Source: Chiloscyllium plagiosum (taxonomy: Eukaryota). From it: a stretch of 49,870 bases of DNA. Of the stretch, positions 11,913-45,623 are shown in pieces. The notes beneath the pieces are model-generated. The model was not told the origin of the DNA. It made no database searches and saw only the letters and a program-made list of their open reading frames with translations. Where the stretch lies: the NCBI RefSeq assembly GCF_004010195.1, contig NC_057758.1, positions 2,937,340 to 2,987,209 on the forward strand, given 5' to 3'. Position 1 is the stretch's first letter. Each line of letters opens with the position of its first letter. Both the position numbers and the translations under genes were made by a program.

Positions 11913-12353
11913 TTGAGGATCTGCTGTTCCGCCAATATTCAGGTGTAATTCATGTAACAGGGAGTCCGTATTTGGCGAATACTCCCAACGTATACAGGCC
12001 TTAACAGGGTGCCAGAAGCAGTATATAGAATTCATAAGGTTTTTTTTCTGCCAGACGGTCCTCATTCATGTTCAGATTTGGTCTCTATTGCGTCCACATT
12101 TGCACGTCCTAAATCTATTCCAGCTTTGGGAGTAATTTTTAACTGCACCATTTGTGATGTAGTTCCAGACCATCAAAAATTATGTTCCAGTCTTATAAAA
12201 TCTCCTCATGTTTCTTTCGGTTGTCACTTAAGTGTGGGCACATTGCCTTACTTGAAATATTCACTGAGACCCTGCGAGTGTTTCTGTCAGGCCATTGATG
12301 CAGAGGATGTCAGATCAAACCTTAGAGAAGCTTAGTGGGTCTGAAAGTATCTG

Positions 12354-12355
<2 letters not shown>

Positions 12356-12389
<34 letters not shown>
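12356..12389. repeat. (GT)n microsatellite
   Basis: Uninterrupted gt run. Confidence 0.95.
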
Positions 12390-12391
<2 letters not shown>

Positions 12392-13149
12392 CACGCTGGC
12401 CTCAAGAGTAATCTGTGGCAACAAGTTCAAAGCTAAACAAAACTGAGTGAAGCCATTCATGCCATCTAATTTAGGTCCCTCTTTATTCTGAGACTCTGCT
12501 CCTCTGTGTACTGTAAGACGTAATGTGTACTTCTCAACTGCTGTTTAATTTACATGTTTTATTTTCCTTTCTTGCAGTTAACATACTGGCTATTGCAATT
12601 CTTTCTCGGGCTAAGTGTGGTCTATCAAAATGCATCGGTCGGTATCTGGTCGACATGCATCGGTCGGTATCTGGTGGATCTACTGGTCAACATCCTTAAC
12701 CTGACACTGAGGCATATTCCAATTGTATACAAAACAAAATTTCTGTTTGTGATGTCGACAGCTGTGTACAATGTCCATGCTATTCTTGTCCATGCAGCCA
12801 CAGACTGTTCTGTCTGGTTCAGTTGCTTTCACCTTTGATCGATTCGTTGCCAGAAACAGAAATGTAAATATTGCACTGTGAAAATTGCAACTGTCGTTTC
12901 GGGCATAGTGAGAGTACTGATCTGTTTAAAGAATATTATTTGGTATTTTATGATAACAGGTCAGTATCAGCTCAAGCACCTGCCTTGGTTTTGTAAGGTA
13001 AGATCAGGTGCTGAACAATCTTATTTCTGAGGAACATTTGAAATCGCTCATCATCATCTACCCCATGTTTGGCAATACTTTTGATTGTACTGTTCAATAC
13101 TAAGTTAAAAAATCACACAACAAAAGTCCAACAGGTTTAATTGGAAGTA

Positions 13150-13184
13150 CACTAGCTTTCGGAGCGCCGCTCCTTCATCAGGTT
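13150..13184 (-). ncRNA. Minimal hammerhead ribozyme motif in left PLE arm
   Basis: Reverse complement CTGATGA-A-GGAGC-ggc-GCTCC-GAAA-GC-TA; stem I reduced to about 2 bp. Confidence 0.65.
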
Positions 13185-13902
13185 ATAGTGGAGGACACAA
13201 TTCTAAGGCACAGAATTTATAGCAAAAAATTACAGTGTGATGGAACTGAAATTATACATTGAAAAATACCTTGTCTGTTGAGTCTTTCGTCTGTTCGAAT
13301 ACCATGATAGTTTCACTTCTTTCATGTGTAAATCACAAAACCTTTTTTAAAACGTTGCATTCTCAGTTTAGCTGTAACAATGGGCGTTAGCTAGACAATA
13401 TGTTGAAGGTGTTAGCCCCCTGTGTTCTCTGTCTATGCCATGATGTTTAGATTGATTCTAATCTAAAAAGTAAGAAAACAGAGCTCTATTTGAATTCATG
13501 CTATTTTTTGAGCTCAGAGTTTTACATGAATTCATGCAGTTTTTTGGAAAGTACAATGCACGTACAAAGTCACCCCACAAAATATCTGTGTGCATGTGAG
13601 TCTTTGTCTATCTGCGTGTGCGTGTTTGGGGTGGGGGCTTGTGAGTGTCTATGAGAGAGAGTGTATGTGTGTGTGTGCATGAGTGTAAAGTGGTCTAAGT
13701 CTCTGAGAGGATGCCTGTGTGGGCGTGGGAGTGTGTGTGTCTGTAAGGGCGTATTTGATTGTCTGTGTGCGTGTCTGTGTATATGTGTGTATGTGTGTCT
13801 ATAGGCGTGCCTTTGTGTGTGTGTGTGTGAGAGAGAGAGAGTGTGTGTAGGAGTGTCTGCGTGTGTGTATAGTGGTCACCTGTATTGTGACATGAACATA
13901 AG

Positions 13903-14366
13903 CTACCGGTTGAGGCCCTCCCTATGGGTATCAAACTTAGCTATCAGCCTCTGCTCTTTCACTTTTCGATGCTGCCTATCCCGAAGTCCGCCTTGGAGGA
14001 TGGTCACCCGAAGGTCCGATGTTGAATGTCCTGGATCACTGAAGTGTTCTCCCACTGGGAAAGAACACTCCTGTATGTTAATTGTTGTGCCGTGCCCATT
14101 CATCCATTGCTGTAGCCTTTGCTCGGTTTCCCCAGTGTACCTTGCCTCAGGGCATCCTTGCCTGCAACGTATAAGATAGACAACGTTGGCTGAGTCACAT
14201 AAATACCTGCCATGTACAAAGTGGGACGTGTCCCCACGTGTAATGGTGGTATTCATGTCCACACTCTGACACATCTTGCAGCGCCTACCGTGGCTGGGTT
14301 GTATGGAGTTGTCCTGAGAGCCGGGCAGCTTGCTAGGAACAATGATTTGTTTGATGTTTGGCGGTT
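13903..14366 (-). pseudogene. 5'-truncated PLE ORF: Cys-rich linker plus GIY-YIG endonuclease
   Basis: HGRRCKMC...NVVYLIRCRQGCPEARYTGETEQRL...PVGEHFS...EQRLIAKFDTHREGLNR. Confidence 0.9.
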
Positions 14367-15012
14367 GACACTCCTACACACACAGACACTCTTTCTCATA
14401 CACACGCGCGCACACACACACACCTATACACACATATACACACATATAGACAGACACATACACAGACACTCAGACACAGCCTTACAGACACACACATTCC
14501 CACACCCACACAGGCATCCTCTCAGAGACTTAGACCACTTTACAGTCTTGCACACACACATACACTCTCTCTCCCAGACACTCACAACCTCCCACCTCAG
14601 ACACGCACAAACAGACAGACAAAGATCCGCATGCACACATATATATTGTGGGGTGAATTTGTACTTGCAGAGTTAGATTGTACTTTACTAACAAACTGCA
14701 TGAATTCATGTAAAGCTCTGTTTTCTCGCTTTTTAGATTAGAATCAATCTAAACATCTTGGCATGGACAGAGAACACAGGGGGCTAACACCTTCACCATA
14801 TTGTGCAGCTAACGCCCATTGTTACAGCTAACCTGAGAATGCAACTTTTAAAAAAAAGGTTTTGTGATTTCCACATGAAAGAAGTGAAACTAACATGGTA
14901 TTCGAACAGATGGAAGACTCAACAGACAATCAAGGTATTTTTCAATTTCAGTTCCATCACACTGTAAATTTTTGCTATAAATTCTGTGCCTTAGAATTGT
15001 GTCCTCCACGAT

Positions 15013-15047
15013 CACCTGATGAAGGAGCGGCGCTCCGAAAGCTAGTG
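15013..15047 (+). ncRNA. Minimal hammerhead ribozyme motif in right PLE arm
   Basis: CAC-CTGATGA-A-GGAGC-ggc-GCTCC-GAAA-GC-TA-GTG: both conserved boxes, 5-bp stem II, palindromic AGCT stem III, 3-bp stem I. Confidence 0.75.
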
Positions 15048-15652
15048 TACTTCCAATTAAACCTGTTGGACTATGACCTGGTGTTGTGTGATTTTAACTT
15101 TGTACACCCCAGTCCAAAACTGGCATCTCCAAATCTGTTCAATACTGTTGCGTCAGGCTTATTTTACTGGCCAACAGTGCCCGCAGGAAACTGAAGACTC
15201 TCAGCAGAGGGAAAAGATGTCACATACCTAACAATGGAGACTCGATGGAAATCCATAATCTTGTTGTTTCTCATTTCAGCCAACTTTGTATGTAATGGGC
15301 AGCCTTTATGCTCCATTCTATATGGAAGAGTTTGTGGTGACTGGGACTGAAGACAATCTATCTCTATTATTTCGTGGCAGAAATTGGATTCTTCTGCCAG
15401 CTCTCCAGTTACCGTGTGAAATATTTGCATTTATACCTTGACATTGAGCAAATTCAGGAATCAGATGAAGAATGTGTTCAAATATCCAATTTCATTCTTA
15501 CTGAAATTTTTCAAAATTAAAAAGTTGTTAGAAAGAAAATAGGGAAGCAAAACCACTTCAGGATCAATTCGTTTCACGTTCACTTAGAGTCAGAAGAGAG
15601 GCCACAGGTGGTCAGTAAAGACACCTCGACATGTGAGAATCACGTAAAGTGG

Positions 15653-18600
15653 CGTTATGAAGTTGAAGACGTGTACTGTATCTTTCAGAAAGAGTGAAAG
15701 TTTAAAACCTGGCAAACACCAGGTTTGACTGACGGCTTGCACAAAGTGTGCTGGACAATTTGAAGACGTAACACTTAAGCTGTAACGAAGGTACACAACA
15801 ATTCGAATTCGACCAGGTAGTTATTATTATGCCTGACGTACGTATAAGTAACAATCAAACTTGAATTTTACCGTTTTGACAATATCAAACGAATGAGACA
15901 ATCCGATGTTTTAGGGTATACAAAGCAGGCATTTTGAACAGTTCGCAGAGAGCGACCACATGCCATTGTCATACAGATTCCCCAACACTTCTGTGTAAAA
16001 GATCCCCTTTTCATATGAATCACCTTTGGAGCAGAAAACCAAAGACGTACCATGGGAAATCTCCAAGCAGACGTAGTTTGACACCCGAAGGTGTCAACTG
16101 GTTTGGAGAACTGATTTACTTTAAATTTAATAGGGGCTTTAACAGATTGGCATGTTATAGAGTGGGAAGTAGACAACAAAATTTTAAGAGAAAGGAAGGT
16201 CATTGTTAGGAATAGGTGTTGTTTAATGTTCTCTTTTGGAGTGAAAGAATAAACAGAGGAATTTTTGTAGTTCTTTGTCACTCATACTTTAACAGATTAT
16301 GAGGCGAGGGGAGCTTTTCTGTATGTTTGGTATAATTAGGAGAAACACTTTTTAAAATTTTGGTTACTTGCAGTTGGTTAAATTAAACGTGGGAGAAATC
16401 ACTCTTAAAATTGTGAAGAGTTTCTCTAGTTTGAAGTTGTTACCCAAATTTGCCAAGAATGTTGAAAAAGAAACGACCATAATTTTAGAATTAGGGAAGA
16501 GGTTACAATTTTGTTTAAACAACGACAAAAGTGAAACTGAAATTGTACGGGAATTACTCAAACACTTTAGTGTGTCAGACAAACAAACAAGTGGAATTAG
16601 AAGATAAAGAAAGGAAGAGATAATGCAAAATGGAGAGAGAAGAAAGATAAAGAGAGGAAAAAGATATAGAAGGAGCTGAAAAAGAAATATGGAGAAGGTT
16701 ATTAGCTGAGCAAAAAGAGGGAGAAGAAAGGGAGAGAGAAGAAGAGAGAGAAAAGAGAAATGCAGACAGACATTCGACTTCAGACGTTGCGACTTACGAC
16801 AGTCAATTCTACAGGATGGAGATTAAGAGAGATGGTAATTATAGTACATGTATGACAAAACACTGCCACGTTTTGATGAGAAAGATGACGAAGCGTTCTG
16901 TATTACATTGGGAAAATCGGCGAGACACATGGAGTGGTCAGAGAACTTGTGGGTAATGTTAGTTTAGACTAAACTGTTAGGCAGAGCTAGTGAGGCACTT
17001 GCAGTTCTGGAAGATACGGACTCAAGAGAATATGGATAAGCCAAGCTGGCTATTTTGAGTGCGTATGAATTGGTACCAGGAACGTGTATACACGTTTTCC
17101 GAAACATAAAGAAGGAACCAGGTCAGACTTACAGTGAGTTTTAAAGAATTTAACGTCGTTATTTTAGTAGATGGGTGCGGGCCTTAAAACTAGATTAGAC
17201 CTATGAGGCTCAAAAAGAAATTATTGTGCTGGAGGAGTTTTTAAAAATCACCTCCAGAGGTGTTGAGAAGTCACGTGGATGTGCGGGAAGCTCAGGAAGT
17301 GAGAAGATCAGAAGAGATAGCAGACATACATGGGTGCATAAGGCAAAGATTAGCTTCTGGCAGGAATTTCATTCTGTGAGGGATAAAAATCGGAAGAACT
17401 GGAGATCCTACACTATGAAACAAAGAGCAGAAAACACTGGCAATTGTTTACCACAGATTAAAAAAAGCCCAAGAGGGTGGAACGGAGGTGAAATACCTCA
17501 GTATTTCCATTGTGTTAAATTGGGATACATAAAGTCACAGTACTAGTCGTAAAATAAATGTGCTGTGGGAAAAAGATGTGGAAAATTACGCTAAACCAAT
17601 GGCATTACTGAACGTAATTAAGGAAACCCCAAGAAAAATCGATGAGCTACAGGAAAGTGCACAACATATGCAGGGGCTAGGTACAATGTTAGTACGAATT
17701 GCAAAGAGTTTACTAAATCTCTGCAAACATTTCGCCTCTTTTGGGAAGGATTAATTTCTAAGATCTGATGGAGAATGGAAGGAAGTTATAACCCTTAAAG
17801 ATAAAAGATCTAACCAGTCTCTAATAATAAGAGAAGAACGTGATTGCACTCTTTCTGTAAAGTTAGCGCAGAGAGTGATAATTTGTGGAGTTGATGGAGA
17901 GAAATACAGCGTTTCCACTGTATAAAATCAGGTTGGAATGCCAACTCAAGGATTTCAAAAGTAACAGTGGGAGTGATTGACAAAGTGTTAGGTCAAGGAT
18001 TAGTTTGTTTTTGATTGCGATTTAGCAGGATCCACGGTGGGACTAACACCCATTGATGTGGACATCCCAAAGGAACACCAAAGAAATGAGGAGTGAAAAG
18101 AAAAATAACCTGTAAGTTTCCTGAACTGTGAAGTAAGAACATACCACTGTAAAACGTCACAACACGAAGCAAAATCTAATGTGAAATATGTAGTAGTTAA
18201 GTTTCACTTCAGACAGAAGTGTTTTGTCCTGAAACAATAATGGACTTACAACAGAAAATCGAGACAGCAGCAGACATATATGTTGATGTAAACTCCGAAA
18301 AGGATGCAGAGAATATTCATGAGGGTTATTATCTGACAGATAGAATCCTAAGACGAAAATGGAGAATACAGTAGGTTAGTGCAGAGGAGAAACAGGTAGA
18401 AGTGCAACAGATTATGCTCCCAGACGCTCACAGACACTAAGTGGAATGTGTCGCACCTGAACTTTCAGCAGTTTATCACCTTGATGTACGGAGGAGTCAG
18501 GCTAATGTACAAAAGCATTTCTGCTAGCTGCAACAAACCAGAATGTTGTTACATTTCTTCATCCGTGTCATACGTATCAAATGGTAGGTAAGCCATTGGA

Positions 18601-21757: not shown

Positions 21758-22819
21758 CGTTTAGATGAATAATTTTCCATCGTCAGTCACAACAGAAGTG
21801 CAGCAAAGAGCTTCAATCAGATAATTTTATAAGCAAGTACTTTCGGTCTAAACTCTGCATGATGCAGAGGTCACTTAATCCTGTACTCACAAATATCAAA
21901 GGATTTTAGTGTCACACAGTTTTCAGCAAAGAAGCAATTCCAAGAAAATGAAGTCAGACCGCTGCCCACTATCCCCACCTTGAAGTTCATTGACGTTCCC
22001 ATCGCTGAAATCTGTGTTGGGACATTCATGTATAGCTGACCCTAAATAACAACATATATACTGACGTTACATCAGCAGGACAGAGGCTGTGAATTCCATG
22101 GCATCAACATTTGATTCTGCCTCGGCAACACTCAGCAGTTGATGAATCATTTGTCAACCACTTGACCAAGAACTCTCTGCCCCATCACCATAGAAGCAGC
22201 ATTGTGCACCATGTACAATTCCCTTTGAAAGAACTCTCGCTCGTCATGATCAGCAAATAAAATTAACAGACACAGGAAATGCAGTGATACCTTTGTGTTC
22301 ACTTCTAAACCACAACAGTTCTATACTTGGAACTATATAACTGTTCCTTCACAATACTGGGGATGAAACTTTGTAAATTGCTTCCTGACAACACTGTCCC
22401 ATGTGCTTACCTCAGCAAGGCCTGCAGTGCCTCAGTGAGGGAGCTCATCACCACCTTCGAAAGGGCAATTCGTTTTATTATGTGATCCTTTTGAAAAGAC
22501 AGCACACTCATTAATAAACCAACACTGGCAGTGTCAAGTAGAACGAATAGGAATTTTGCCACACATGCTGACATATTACAGGATGTGATGTCATCCAAGT
22601 GAACGCTTGATACACAATCATTTGCAGAGCGATGGAATCTGCACTATTGATTGAGTTGTAAAGTGAGTTGAATCATTCGTTGAAAAACATGACGTAAATC
22701 ATGTAAGGCTCCACAGATTTCAGAGGCAGTAAATTCTTTGGTTCTTCCCGCTGCTTGATGCATTTAACCATTCGATTAAAGAACACCAACACAGCCTTTT
22801 TCTGTATATAATTTTAGTT

Positions 22820-22970
22820 ACATCACACTGTCAAATTTTGCACTAATTTCTGTGTCTTACAATCTTATACTCCGCAACCTCCTGAGGAAGAGGTCGCACG
22901 TCGAAAGCTAATTCTTCGCATTAAACCTATTGGACTATGACCTAGTGTTGCGTGATTTCTGGCTTTGTAT
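22820..22970 (+). mobile_element. Degenerate solo PLE pseudo-LTR of the same family as the 13102-15134 arms
   Basis: cacactgtcaaattttgc...cctgaggaag...cgaaagcta...ttaaacctattggactatgacctagtgttgcgtgattt parallels 14957-15100. Confidence 0.8.
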
Positions 22971-23610
22971 ATTCTTCAGTGCTCTCTGAACTTAGTCCAG
23001 TTAGGGCATTACGACAAGAGATTTTAAAAATCTTTTTTTTAATTACCATTCAACATGTGAATCATGAAGACCATTTTATGAGCAAGGTCAGAAATCAATA
23101 TGGGACTGCAACCAAGGTAATGCATGCATTTCATATCGAATAAATAATCAGCATTGTCCATATTAAGATAACATTCTCGGAGATAATAAAGAGTAAAATG
23201 ATTTATTTCCTTCAACTATTTTGTCTGCTACTGCTTAAATCACAGGGACAACCTCACGTGAAATAGCACAAAACTGTTCTGAGTCTCGAAAAACGTTAAT
23301 TGAAGCTCGAAACAATTGTCTAACCTGAGAAATTAACAAAAGTTGATTTTCCTCCAAAAAAAAGATAATTTTGCAGTTACATGGGAGGTGAGCAGAGGAT
23401 TGCAATATATCAGTTTAAACACGAGAGGAAAATAGAGAGACACAGAGAGATAGACAGAAAGAAACAGAGAGAGACAGAGATACTCAGCCTCAGATTCGTC
23501 ATGCTTTGAGTGTCAGCCTTAGATTCATCATGTTTTAAGTCATTCGTTTAAATTGTTTGCCATTGTTGGCAGATGAGGACTTTCCCTCTCTCTCTAACTC
23601 TCTCTCTCTA

Positions 23611-24262
23611 TGCTGTGGTTCTGTTCGCCGAGCTGGAAGTTTTTGTTGAAAACGTTTCGTCCCCTGGCTAGGCGACATCATCAGTGCTTGGGAGCCTCCT
23701 GCGAAGCGCTTCTTTGATGTTTCCTCCGGTGTTTATAGTGGTCTGTCCCTGCCGCTTCCGGTTGTCAGTTTCAGCTGTCCGCTGTAGTGGTTGGTATATT
23801 GGGTCCAGGTCGATGTGTTTGTTGATGGAGTTTGTGGATGAATGCCATGCCTCTAGGAATTCCCTGGCTGTTCTCTGTCTGGCTTGCCCTATGATAGTAG
23901 TGTTGTCCCAGTCGAATTCATATTGCTTGTTCCCAACACCAAGGAGAGGGAAGCACTGAAATCACTAAGAACCTAGAGGCATGGCATTCATCCACAAACT
24001 CCATCAACAAACACATCGACCTGGACTTTCTCTTAGGCATCTGTTGATGAAGTTGCGAGGGTATCCGTTTTTGGCGAATACCTTGTATAGGTGTTCCTCT
24101 TCTTCATTTTGCAGTTCTGGTGTACTGCAGTGTGTTGTGGCCCTTTTGAATAGTGTCCAAAAACGTTTTTCTCTTAGGCATCTGTTGATGAAGTTGCGCG
24201 GGTATCCGTTTTTGGACACTATTCAAAAGGGCCACAACACACTGCAATACACCAGAACTGCA
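23611..24262 (-). mobile_element. Penelope/Poseidon-type PLE 3' end followed by rearranged internal fragments
   Basis: Minus strand FDWDNTTIIGQARQRTAREFLEAWHSSTNSINKHIDLDPIY; also TLFKRATTHCSTPELQNEEEEHLYKVFAKNGYPRNFINRCL. Confidence 0.88.
23648..23688 (-). ncRNA. Minimal hammerhead ribozyme motif in PLE pseudo-LTR (stem I mismatched)
   Basis: Reverse complement gca-CTGATGA-t-GTC-gcctagccaggg-GAC-GAAA-CG-TT. Confidence 0.6.
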
Positions 24263-26749: not shown

Positions 26750-27147
26750 ACAGAGCATTGGAGGGATACAGGAGAGCCAGAAGGGAGCTGAAGAAAGGGA
26801 TTAGGAGAGCTAAGAGAGGGCATGAAAAATCTTTGGCGGATAGGATCAAGGATAACCCCAAGGCCGTTTATGCGTATGTGAGAAACATGAGAATGACGAG
26901 AACGAGGGTAGGTCCGATCAAGGACAGTAGTGGGAGACTGCATTGATTCGGAAGAGATAGGAGAGGTCTTGAATGAGTACTTTTCTTCAGTATTTACAAA
27001 CGAGAGGCACTGTATTGTTGAAGAGGAGAGTGTGAAACGGACTGGTAAGCTCGAAGAGATACTTGTTAAGCAGGAAGATGTGTTAGACATTTTGAACAAC
27101 TTGAGGATAGACAGTCCCCCGGGCCTGATGGGATATATCCTAGGATT

Positions 27148-28311
27148 ATGTGTGAAGCAAGGCAGGAAATTGCAGAACCGTTGGCAGTGATCTTTTCGTC
27201 TTCACTGTCAACGGTGCTGGTACCAGCGGACTGGAGAGTGGCGAATGTTATGCCCCTGTTCAAAAAAGGGAATAGAGATAACCCAGGGAATTACAGGCCA
27301 GTTAGTCTTACTTCGGTGGTAGGCAAAGTAATGGAAAGAGTACTGATGGATAGGATTCATGAGTATCTGGAAAGACACTGCTTGATTAGGGACAGCCAGC
27401 ATGAAATTGTGAGTGGTAGGTCTTGCCTTACAAGTCTTATTGAATTCTTTGAGGAGGTGACCAAGCATGTGGATGAGGGTAGAGCAGTGGATGTAGCATA
27501 CATGGATTTTAATAAGGCATTTGATAAGGTTCCCCATGGTAGGCTTATGCGGAAAGTCAGGAGGCATGGGATAGAGGGAAATTTGGTCAGTTGGATAGAA
27601 AACTGGCTCACCGGTCGAAGTCAGAGAGTGGTGGTATATTGTAAATATTCAGCCTGGAGCCCAGTTACAAGTGGAGTTCCGCAGGGATCAGTTCTGGGTC
27701 CTCTGCTGTTTGTAATTTTTATTAATGACTTGGAAGAGGGAGTCGAAGGGTGGGTCAGTAAATTTGCAAATGATACGAAGATTGGTGGAGTTGTGGATAG
27801 TGAGGAGGGCTATTGTCGGCTGCAGAGGGACTTAGACATGATGCAGAGTTGGGCTGAGGAGTGGCAGATGGAGTTCAACCCTGTCAAGTGTGAGGTTGTC
27901 CATTTTGGAAGGACAAATAAGAATGCGGAATACAGGGTTAACGGTAGGGTTCTTAGTAAGGTGGAGGAGCAGAGGGATCTTGGGGTTTATGTTCATAGAT
28001 CTTTGAAAGTTGCCACTCAGGTGGATAGAGCTTGTAAGAAGGCCTATGATGTATTAGCGTTCATCAACAGAGGGATTGAATTCAAGAGTCGTGAGGTGAT
28101 GTTGCAACTATACAGGACTTTGGTTAGGCCACATTTGGAGTACTGTGTTCAGTTCTGGTCGCCCTACTTTAGGAAAGATGTGGAAGCTTTGGAGAGTGTG
28201 CAGAGAAGATTTACCAGGATGTTGCCTGGAATAGAGAAGAGGTCGTACGAGGATAGGTTGAGAGTGCTAGGCCTTTTCTCATTGGAACGGCGAAAGATGG
28301 GGCTCACTTGA
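27148..28311 (+). pseudogene. CR1 reverse transcriptase domain ORF (387 aa) with altered catalytic motif
   Basis: NYRPVSLTS, YMDFNKAFDKVPH, SGVPQGSVLGPLLF, KFANDTK in place of FADDTK. Confidence 0.93.
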
Positions 28312-33744: not shown

Positions 33745-33909
33745 TTTCCAACGCCTCTCCCCCAAGTCCCTCCTCCCTACCTTTTATCTTAGCCTGATGG
33801 ACACACTTTCCTTATTCCTGAAGAAGGGCGCATGCCCGAAACGTCGATTCTCCTGCTCCTTGGATGCTGCCTGACCTGCTGCGCTTTTCCAGCAACACAT
33901 TTTCAGCAC
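33745..33909 (+). mobile_element. Solo PLE pseudo-LTR inserted in the Gypsy LTR
   Basis: Flanked by tgttccaatatac (33732-33744) and tgttcaaatatac (33910-33922); same family as the 20500 end. Confidence 0.85.
33815..33848 (+). ncRNA. Minimal hammerhead ribozyme motif
   Basis: CTGAAGA-A-GGGC-gcat-GCCC-GAAA-CG-TC: GUC triplet, palindromic ACGT stem III, only about 2 bp of stem I. Confidence 0.7.
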
Positions 33910-42955: not shown

Positions 42956-44714
42956 ATTCTTGTGCAGCCATTGCATTTATACAGCGAGATCAGATCAGTG
43001 TTGGTTTAAACACTATAGCCAGCCAAAAGCAGGAACAATGAAACAATACAGCAATGATTGCATTCAATATGTCCAAAAGGTCAATCTGGGCCTCCTCAAA
43101 CCTGTATCCAATTCGAATCTGCTGTGCAGTTTCTCTGATGTTTTCACTTCTTCAAAGTCTACTTAGAGGCAGGGGGCTTCCCCATTGAGGCATAACACTC
43201 TCACTTCATACCACAGGCGCTTCGCAACATCAGCAGAGATGAAGCAGTGCCAGTCGAATCCTTTATGCAAAATGGGAAAAGGGACAACCGACCCATTTTC
43301 TGAAGAAAGGTGACTGGACCCGAAATACTATCTCTGTTCCAAACTCCCCAGATGCTGTCAGACCTGCTGATATTTTCCAGCCATTTTTGCTTTGGATTCA
43401 GACTCCCAGCTGGTCGTTGCTATTAATTTTACTATCCGAAATATTCACCTGCACAAATGTAGGTAAGAAGTGGGCAAACACAGGAATAGAAGGAATGGGT
43501 GGTGAGAGATATTCATTGAAAAAGTAAGTGTTCAATTTCCATGCTACGCTTGTATTTGGAGATTCTAACAGGCAGAGGCAAAATATAAAGGCTCCAAAGT
43601 GAACTTGAAAGCGTGAATTTTGAAGTGATCTTCGCTCATTCGATCATCGAGCTCAAAGCAAGAAACTAAATCTTCATTAATGGAGACGTTCAAGAGTAGG
43701 ATCACGCAAATCAAAACTACGAACTGCAGGCTTAATTAAGAGACCCAATCCAGGATTTATTTCATAACCAGCACGAGTGCATGACAGCGACAGATCTGAG
43801 TCATTCCCAAAGAAACGTTTGAGATTTAAGAACTGTTGTTTCGCCAACATCCAGTTGTAAACGATGGCGGGCAATGGAAATAGCATCCGAGGCTCTGGTC
43901 GTTTCGAATATCCCCGTCTTATACAGTTCTGCACAGGATGTCAGAAGCAATCTGAAGCATTCCTAAGCTTATTCTGCCAGTCGTGCCTCATAGCTATTCG
44001 GTCCTCACCTCCATTGAGTCCACATTTGCAAGTCCAAAATCTATTCCAGCTTTTGGAATAATTATACTGGCTGAAAGAACTAGCTGCACAGTTCGTGATG
44101 CTGCTTCAGTCCAAAGAAATTCCTCTACCGGTCTTATCTAATCCCGTCAGTGTTCTTTCGTGTCAGCTAAGTGTTGGCACATTGCTTTCACTGAAATGTT
44201 CACTGAGGTCCAGCGAGTGATCTTCTCGGGCCATTGATACAGAGGTCATCAGGGCAAACCTTGGAGAAGCTCAGCAGATCTGGCAGCAGCTGTGTAGAGA
44301 GAGGAAGAGAGAGAGAGAGAGAATCAGAGTTCACGTTTCATTTCACTCCTATGCCAAAACTTGGACTGTCACCACACTTATTCCCGTTCCTGGTGCTTCT
44401 GGTCATCTGGAATATTCGTCCTGCGTTTACCCTGCTGACTTCAGTTTCGAGTCCAGTGTTGGTATTCTTCAGGACAGCATTTGTGGAGGTAGGAGGAGGG
44501 TGAACATTTTAAGCCCAATGTGACTTATGCACAAAATGAGTCTGGTCCCAAAGGTTATCAGTGGCAAGGGGTTCAAAGGTACACAAAACTGAATGAAGCC
44601 ATCCATCCCATCTCAAGTAGCTGCCTCTATATTCTGAGCCTCTGCTCCTCTGTGCTCTGTCAAATATAATGTGTACTTTTCAACTGATGGATAATTTACA
44701 GGGTTTTTTTGCAG

Positions 44715-45623
44715 TTAACGGACTGGCTATTGAAATCCTCTCTCGGACTAAGTGTGGCCTATCAAAATGTATCAACCAGTATCTGGTGTATATGTGAGTG
44801 GCAGATCTGCTGGTCAACATCCATGACCTGATACTGAAGCATATTCCAATTGTGTATAATGCAAAATTTCTGTTAATGAAGTCAATCCCTGCGTGCAACA
44901 TCCACGCCGTTCTTGTCCATGCAGCCACAGACTGTTCTGTCTGGTTCACTGTTGCTTTCAACTTTGATCGATTTGTGGCTATCTGTTGCCAAAAACTGAA
45001 ACGTAAATATTGCAACGAGAAAATTACATCTGTAATTTTAGGAAGAGTGACAATACTGAGCTGTTTAAAGAATATTAGTTGATATTTTATGCTAACAAGT
45101 CAGTATCGGCTAAATAATCTCCCTTGATTTTGTCATGAAAAGTCAGGCATTGGCCAATCTCATTTCTGGGGAACATTCGAAATCATTCATTATCTACTAA
45201 TCCCATGTTTGGCAATTCTTTTGACTGTGCTATTCAATGCATTTTGTGTCAGGCGTATCGTACTTGCCCACAGAGCCCGCAGGAGACTGAAGACACACAG
45301 CAGAGGGGAAAATGCCACAGACCCAAAAAATGGAGAATCGAAGAGAGTCCATAATCTTGTTGTTTCTTATTTCAGCCAATTTGGTGCTATCATGGGCAGC
45401 TTTTATGCTCCACTCAATATGGAAACGTATGTGGTGATTGGGACTAAAGGCAATCTATCTCCATTATTTTGTGGCAGAAATTGGATACATCTGCCAGCTC
45501 ACCAGTTACTGTACAAACATTTGTATTTATGCCCTAACATTGAGCAAATTCAAGGATCAGTTGAAGAGTGTGCTCAAATATCCAATTTCACTCTCATTAA
45601 AGTTGCTTAAAAATAAAATGTAG
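44715..45623 (+). pseudogene. Rhodopsin-class GPCR pseudogene exon (GPR139/142-like), second paralog
   Basis: Acceptor ttttttgcag at 44714; LAIEILSRTKCGLSKC, ADLLVNI, TDCSVWFTVAFNFDRFVAICCQKLKRKYC, CTNICIYALTLSKFKDQLK; in-frame TGA at 44795 and 45080, more stops and a frameshift near 45325. Confidence 0.92.

Follow-up and report, generated by a model that had tools for sequence, protein, structure and literature searches.

What is the palindromic insertion that splits a receptor-like exon in the shark Chiloscyllium plagiosum, and how were its two opposed arms formed? The window, the whole 49,870-nucleotide stretch of contig NC_057758.1 that we analysed, carries this element at positions 13102-15134. 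The locus is almost certainly a single, old and inert insertion of a high-copy shark Penelope-like element (PLE) of Neptune type in a GPR139-like pseudogene, in the known form of a truncated copy and an inverted truncated copy with a one-sided tail and a target-site duplication (TSD). Its features are as follows.

12579..13101, plus strand: pseudogene of a GPR139-like receptor (rhodopsin family), the 5' part of its long coding exon; a splice acceptor immediately precedes 12579
13090..13101, unstranded: left TSD copy, 12 bp, from the exact repeat and comparison with an empty-site paralog
13102..13857, minus strand: left arm, made up of the longer PLE copy's 3' UTR and pseudo-LTR; its tail-less end is at 13102
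13150..13184, minus strand: left-arm hammerhead core (minimal, type I), in which C-to-A at 13184 leaves a stem I of 2 bp
13858..14366, minus strand: spacer, C-terminal GIY-YIG endonuclease and start of the 3' UTR, from homolog searches
14367..14367, unstranded: central head-to-head junction, where one G fits both sides and no palindrome is centred
14367..15100, plus strand: right arm, the shorter 5'-truncated inverted copy, 3' UTR then pseudo-LTR, with a CA-rich tract at ~14376-14650
15013..15047, plus strand: minimal type-I hammerhead of the right arm, predicted cut between 15044 and 15045
15056..15074, plus strand: poly(A) signal and family poly(A) site at 15073-15074, the site from RNA run X21 (433 + 567 of 3,432 reads)
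15101..15134, plus strand: tail, 34 bp, on the right arm only, from the arm comparison
15135..15146, unstranded: right TSD copy, 12 bp, from the exact repeat and the empty-site paralog
15147..15494, plus strand: remainder (3' part) of the GPR139-like pseudo-exon, carrying additional stops and 1-bp indels

The 12-bp sequence CTGTTCAATACT is exact at both 13090-13101 and 15135-15146; an exact 12-mer at a given offset has a chance probability of ~1.5e-7, and none of 200,000 random pairs matched. Removal of the element and one repeat copy leaves flanks that are collinear, without a large gap, with a paralog elsewhere in the window (~44710-45610; 850 matches, 197 mismatches, 81% identity), and the repeat is therefore a true duplication; in the paralog it is single. 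Between the two copies, the endonuclease end and 3' repeat of a 5'-truncated PLE copy are joined to a shorter inverted copy. The left arm is the 3' continuation of the spacer's copy, and the right arm is a second copy running in the opposite direction. At the tail-less left end, 13102, three of the next four bases fit the target too. The element has both the inverted pseudo-LTRs with a 30-40-bp tail at one end and the short TSD that mark PLEs. The initial annotation had described a 12-bp TSD, inverted arms of ~750 bp and a 34-bp tail on one side, and all three are borne out, the arms (13102-13857 and 14367-15100) being reverse complements in our alignment; its attribution to a Penelope-like element, from the inverted pseudo-LTR form, the tail and the minimal hammerheads, is likewise supported.

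The insertion had also been placed in a GPCR exon. The host sequence is indeed the long coding exon of a GPR139-like gene, but it is a pseudogene broken on both sides: tblastn with six intact proteins reveals frameshifts and stops either side of the insertion. The 5' part contains a 25-bp tandem duplication (12625-12674), deletions of 2, 10 and 1 bp, and a TGA at 13028-13030. The paralog at 44710-45610 is dead as well, with three stops in 211 codons followed by a frameshift. With a piece of this paralog as query, 699 of 713 candidate proteins matched; of the 120 listed, most bear the name probable GPR139 and come from sharks and rays. The GPR139-like copies in the window are members of a large receptor family in sharks. 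Neither of the two GPCR pieces on the left flank was detected by Pfam, which at E 0.1 also assigned the spacer alone to no family, GIY-YIG included; both were therefore identified through homolog searches. A small minus-strand fragment of a third GPR139-like copy lies at 23134-23289.

tblastn comparisons place the minus-strand product of the spacer at the C-terminal end of RT+GIY-YIG proteins, covering their final ~166 residues. It is 67% identical to residues 477-642 of protein P0026 (E 5.5e-64) and 52% identical to P0029, both of which carry RVT_1, and a close homolog, P0008, hits PF01541 above the cut-off. Among 8,000 scored candidates there were 97 hits to such RT+GIY-YIG relatives, the best of them in sharks. 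Judged from these homologs, the predicted GIY-YIG domain lies C-terminal to a PLE RT, as in EN+ PLEs; the RT is absent at the locus itself, removed by 5' truncation. The spacer had been described as an open GIY-YIG fragment. It does encode the C-terminal GIY-YIG endonuclease, and 154 codons are open from the junction, but a premature TAG follows at 13903-13905; homology extends to ~13882, the natural stop is at 13876-13878, and the end of the spacer, 13858-13875, is 3' UTR. The motif YLIRCRQGC...YTG, both His, the Glu and the Asn are kept, as expected for the CCHH motif of EN+ PLEs with its two Cys inside the GIY-YIG core. The position of the catalytic Arg, Arg in both P0026 and P0029, is Trp here (14104-14106), a change attributable to decay of this copy. 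Synonymous changes make up 7 of the 16 spacer differences listed, a share not significantly above neutral (p 0.095).

A CX2-5CxxC linker upstream of the GIY-YIG domain marks Neptune and is absent in Penelope/Poseidon (PMC8557442), and Neptune and Poseidon are both listed for vertebrates (preprint 10.64898/2026.07.22.740005). The homologs have a C-x4-C-xx-C linker, which reads S-x4-C-xx-C at the locus (first Cys to Ser, 14293-14295), and family letters restore the Cys. Because of this linker we assign the element to the Neptune type and not to Penelope/Poseidon; the putative assignment rests on the linker motif, which Nematis has likewise. Pieces of the spacer endonuclease also occur in several annotated shark host proteins (P0019, P0028, P0032-P0034), namely FAM210B, NOXP20-like, septin 5a, PPP1R12A-like and XRCC5 isoforms, and are either exonised PLE fragments or annotation errors.

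Two hammerhead cores had been claimed. Each arm has one, but stem I of the left is damaged. The right core consists of stem I (CAC/GUG), CUGAUGA, an unpaired A, stem II, GAAA and a palindromic AGCU that replaces helix III. Both cores, with C3 at 15016 (plus strand) and 13181 (minus strand), have the unpaired base before stem II and the AGCU; stem I is 3 bp in the right core and has lost one pair in the left. Of the two cores, the right (49 nt) adopts the expected fold, with z = 0.0, and the left fails to; z-scores for folding are close to zero across the hammerhead and tail regions. A descriptor scan of both strands of the window gave four hits, two of them the arm cores. Of the other two, the one at 15191 falls within GPCR sequence, probably by chance, and the descriptor by itself is therefore not specific. 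Rfam at E 1 over 12000-16500 reported no hammerhead family; its three matches are all low-complexity and far below the cut-off. An ATG inside the hammerhead core is followed by a stop after seven codons.

The cores resemble the minimal hammerheads of metazoan PLEs (PMC4209133) in the core itself, the unpaired base before stem II, the G10.1-C11.1 pair, the short helix I and the palindromic remnant of helix III. Opposite-strand pairs lie ~100-700 bp apart in that report and 1.8 kb apart here, where stem II is 4-5 bp. A lone minimal hammerhead did not self-cleave in vitro (Cervera & de la Pena 2014, PMC4209133); activity needs a dimer or help from protein, and the two cores of this locus cannot make a dimer in one RNA because they are on opposite strands. 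In the anole element, the hammerhead motif is protein-dependent and dispensable for insertion in vitro (PMC11167929). Another minimal hammerhead-like core (CTGAAGA, stem II, GAAAC) is present in a different repeat at 33810-33860.

We compared the locus with its family using positions 13871-15560 (spacer, right arm and right flank) as query, at 85% likeness and with 14392-14578 masked, against three DNA contig sets (X1, X5, X9) and one RNA run (X21), four of the 24 runs listed. The query matched 51,014 (X1), 39,301 (X5) and 40,740 (X9) contigs, and such numbers, ~39,000-51,000 per run, indicate a very abundant family. Loose ends cluster at two positions, 15095 and 15135, with 1,694 and 1,112 in X1, 1,061 and 531 in X5, and 1,526 and 1,092 in X9. 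At 15095 the loose part tracks the element for ~8 letters before agreement falls to 0.43-0.45; at 15135 the loose letters share an ATGACT, past which agreement is 0.39. The two clusters are the tail-less and tailed end classes, family-wide, although a one-base indel may have caused some tailed copies to be clipped and counted at 15095.

The poly(A) signal is ATTAAA at the locus and AATAAA in the loose-end consensus of other copies. In X21, poly(A) begins at 15073-15074, 12-13 nt past the hexamer, in 1,000 of the 3,432 matched reads. The family poly(A) site thus lies upstream of both genomic ends, the tail-less and the tailed, so polyadenylated RNA 3' ends cannot template either of them; this position agrees with reverse transcription starting internally, as mapped in PMC11167929. 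Host transcripts that include PLE fragments, rather than transposing RNA, may be the source of the poly(A) reads. As an observation in its own right, the pseudo-LTR is an often-used poly(A) site in the transcripts of this shark, given these 1,000 reads, and may end many host transcripts.

The family contigs have a further recurrent 5' boundary at 15013, right at stem I of the hammerhead (loose ends: 272, 184 and 244), and head-to-tail joints from 15135 to 15013. Joints between opposite strands at 15013/15050, in 9, 8 and 9 contigs, fall within ~5 nt of the predicted cut at 15044/15045; they might mark copies of cleaved RNA, a reading confounded by a 2-nt indel at 15048. An older solo pseudo-LTR of the same family at 22797-22969 (plus strand, ~77% alike) has a decayed hammerhead, apparently ends shortly past the tail-less site, and has no clear TSD or inverted partner.

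The arms had been proposed to act as an insertion clock. They differ at 53 of 704 aligned columns and by 13 gap runs, with uneven divergence: 20/428 outside the CA-rich tract (4.7%, 95% interval 2.9-7.1%) and 33/276 (12%) inside it (Fisher p 0.0006). We checked the arms against the family at the 15 right-arm positions among the 40 differences listed, of 175 in all. At these positions the left arm has the family letter in 10, the right arm's letter in 4 and a gap in 1. Ten of the 15 differences are thus private to the right arm, which is what a clock needs and fits decay after insertion, while the letters common to both arms fit a common source copy; two of the four are weak (one a CpG, one beside an ambiguous gap). 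A 36-bp extra unit of the left arm resembles an insertion at the same place in other family contigs. The spacer has no indel relative to its homologs, and the non-CA part of the arms has nine gap runs; the Poisson p for this contrast is ~0.007 if all are counted as post-insertion and 0.11 if only ~2 per arm are counted. Some arm differences may therefore predate the insertion. Owing to the CA-tract divergence, the family-variant indel and the indel-free spacer, whole-arm identity overstates the age, and gene conversion between the arms could lead to its understatement. The pedigree rate of the epaulette shark, 7e-10 per generation (PMC10587355), gives ~3.4e7 generations (range 1.7e7-1.7e8), a range too broad, and a date probably too old, to be of use. 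The clock is valid in part: most right-arm differences are private, but it is weakened by uneven divergence, the family-variant indel and the want of a usable calibration. A contig of X9 (record 23) aligns over 15179-15560 with 20 differences in 384 and represents an ortholog or a close paralog.

Summed contig depth over the spacer and arm is 1e4-1e6. In the bin just past the central junction it is 1.49 (X1), 0 (X5) and 3.37 (X9), and back-calculation over the 8-9 unmasked bases (the mask starts at 14392) gives a junction depth of ~9-11 in X1 and 21-24 in X9, against a single-copy depth of 10-14. This suggests, if indirectly, that the central junction is real and single-copy; record 11 of the contig rows ends at 14367. 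The 14366/14367 junction has no second copy in the window, and no empty allele appears among the contig rows listed. A mobile non-autonomous palindrome, copied widely as a unit, is consequently highly improbable: each arm does have a pseudo-LTR end with a hammerhead and a poly(A) signal, and PLE proteins move sequences between pseudo-LTRs in trans (PMC3846280), but the depth collapses just past the junction to near the single-copy level. An assembly artefact is extremely improbable. None of the contigs listed spans the whole of 13871-15560 or bridges a junction with at least 31 letters on both sides, and inverted structures are known to trouble assemblers (PMC8557442). Against this, record 7 of X1 covers 15109-15278 with one difference and so reaches 26 letters into the element past the right junction, the exact TSD restores the gene, and the 53 substitutions and 13 indels between the arms are not what a chimeric fold-back read would show. 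A history in which two separate insertions hit one site, or in which an inversion or duplication came afterwards, is as improbable as a mobile unit. The very high copy number of the family and the excess of arm indels over those of the spacer would favour such a history; however, one TSD encloses both copies without an internal duplication, non-majority letters are common to both arms, and the inverted form is recurrent in PLEs (PMC8557442, PMC3846280).

For the formation of the single insertion, we lean, by a little, towards two-ended target priming with internal RT starts followed by a central join, as inferred for this locus; the full account, identity and two-ended priming together, we consider reasonably likely and the best explanation as a whole. 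The PLE endonuclease would nick the two target strands 12 nt apart, and both 3' ends would prime reverse transcription, each starting inside the pseudo-LTR region of the element RNA. At the left end, synthesis would start at the tail-less site (15100-equivalent) and copy ~1,266 nt; at the right end it would start at the tailed site and copy ~768 nt. Both cDNAs would stop early; a head-to-head join using one base of microhomology would connect them, and the TSD would result once the stagger was filled. A single source copy probably gave rise to both, in which case the arms would have been nearly identical at first and decayed since. In vitro, the anole Poseidon protein, for which a dimer is predicted, cuts and extends both strands, and two internal start sites bound the tail (PMC11167929). 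The cut sites of the target at our locus do not match the ATT preference given there for the anole element.

Alternatively, the inverted arm may be the product of self-priming (or of fold-back) using either an antisense template or the nascent cDNA; the endonuclease would then have resolved the intermediate and taken the tail off one end. Self-priming on an antisense template was favoured in PMC3846280 from palindromes at inverted junctions, and PMC8557442 suggests that the tail arises by endonuclease resolution; such a route could give the same product if the tail were trimmed from one end, and would explain the up to four non-majority letters common to both arms. At our locus, however, the best inverted repeat near the central junction is 5 bp and none is centred there, only 3 of 20 bases match in the fold-back register, and the short arm has 34 bp absent from the long arm. 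The right arm is for these reasons not a simple fold-back copy of the left. In PMC11167929, moreover, the tail is accounted for by two RT start sites, with no trimming. We therefore regard self-priming as unlikely, though a serious contender, and retain two-ended priming as the preferred reading, with the proviso that one locus cannot show the order of events.

The shark family may record two-ended priming in tens of thousands of copies, with internal starts downstream of the RNA poly(A) position; we hold this tentatively, as a real possibility that falls somewhat short of probable. If this is true, what was shown in vitro for the anole would also hold in vivo for the Neptune clade, inverted-plus-tail insertions would be explained without self-priming, and shark genomes would offer a large test set. 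The origin of the tandem and inverted structures of PLEs is described as unresolved in PMC8557442. The locus is a clean worked example; a genome-wide count in sharks could test the PLE mechanism, which a single insertion cannot. A literature search in which subscription titles were thinly covered found no report tying Penelope to twin priming and inverted GIY-YIG copies, which does not imply absence from print.

The initial annotation further foresaw a read-through RNA folding into a long hairpin, with possible ADAR editing. The arms would pair strongly (predicted duplex -1117 kcal/mol; longest perfect runs 59, 41 and 40 bp), but X21, one single-cell poly(A) library of which ~2% was read, shows no locus-specific RNA: 3 of its 3,432 matched reads are at least 99% alike to the locus, and there is no depth on the right flank, 15182-15560. 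Nor does it bear out the editing, the A>G and T>C site counts being 18 and 23 in this RNA library (~2% read) and 16-17 and 20-23 in the DNA runs, with no excess. Among sequencing runs retrieved by a sequence search, none listed was RNA, a result uninformative on expression. That the locus yields a functional RNA, a GPCR read-through with a ~750-bp hairpin that is edited, diced or cut by the sense hammerhead, is very unlikely. The strong predicted duplex would favour it, as would the siRNAs produced by inverted Penelope copies in transgenic Drosophila (PMC3681739) and the right arm, with its intact core and a poly(A) signal ending a plus-strand transcript after most of the hairpin. The host gene is dead, however, the arms and cores are decaying with no sign of selection on pairing, monomeric minimal hammerheads are inactive in vitro (PMC4209133), and the missing flank depth and A>G excess add to this, weakly as an absence in a single ~2%-read library. 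The Drosophila copies share the long inverted repeats and possible dsRNA, and siRNAs match their inverted regions; they are young and transcribed, whereas no locus-specific transcription was seen for the shark locus in X21.

The inverted arms with tail and TSD, the opposite-strand hammerhead pairs and the siRNA from inverted Penelope copies are all already in print. Arkhipova et al. (2013, PMC3846280) described truncated copies that have inverted pLTRs on their flanks, optionally a 31-bp tail, and TSDs of 8-10 bp, and Craig et al. (2021, PMC8557442) generalised this form to PLEs. The complex insertions of EN+ PLEs in these reports have the same head-to-head arrangement of a 5'-truncated and an inverted truncated copy, a 30-40-bp tail at one end and a short TSD. 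They differ in that the TSD is 8-10 bp and the pLTR arm ~200 bp, compared with 12 bp and 734 bp plus tail here, where the arm includes most of the 3' UTR; unlike the insertions described there, the locus has no direct upstream pLTR and no junction palindrome, and its host is a shark. The Poseidon element of Anolis carolinensis (Frangieh et al. 2024, PMC11167929) has the same two ends bounding a 30-40-nt tail downstream of the hammerhead, and both strands can be extended; it is an active member of the Penelope/Poseidon clade, whereas the shark copy, with the CX4CxxC linker of the Neptune type, is dead. The locus is thus real but ordinary, a dead copy of an abundant element in a dead copy of a large receptor family, and the part with some value is the family-level pattern of ends and poly(A) site only.

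Other repeats are present in the window. Rearranged and duplicated pieces of a different PLE lie at 23614-24250, with no Pfam hit; from the endonuclease end motif, we take them to be Poseidon-type. A fragment at 18588-19067 matches an integrase core (rve, E 0.004, below the cut-off) and is probably a decayed LTR retrotransposon. At 27070-28311, a LINE retains an open reverse transcriptase frame of 413 codons (RVT_1, E 2e-32), presumably CR1-like, and has many decayed relatives across the window.
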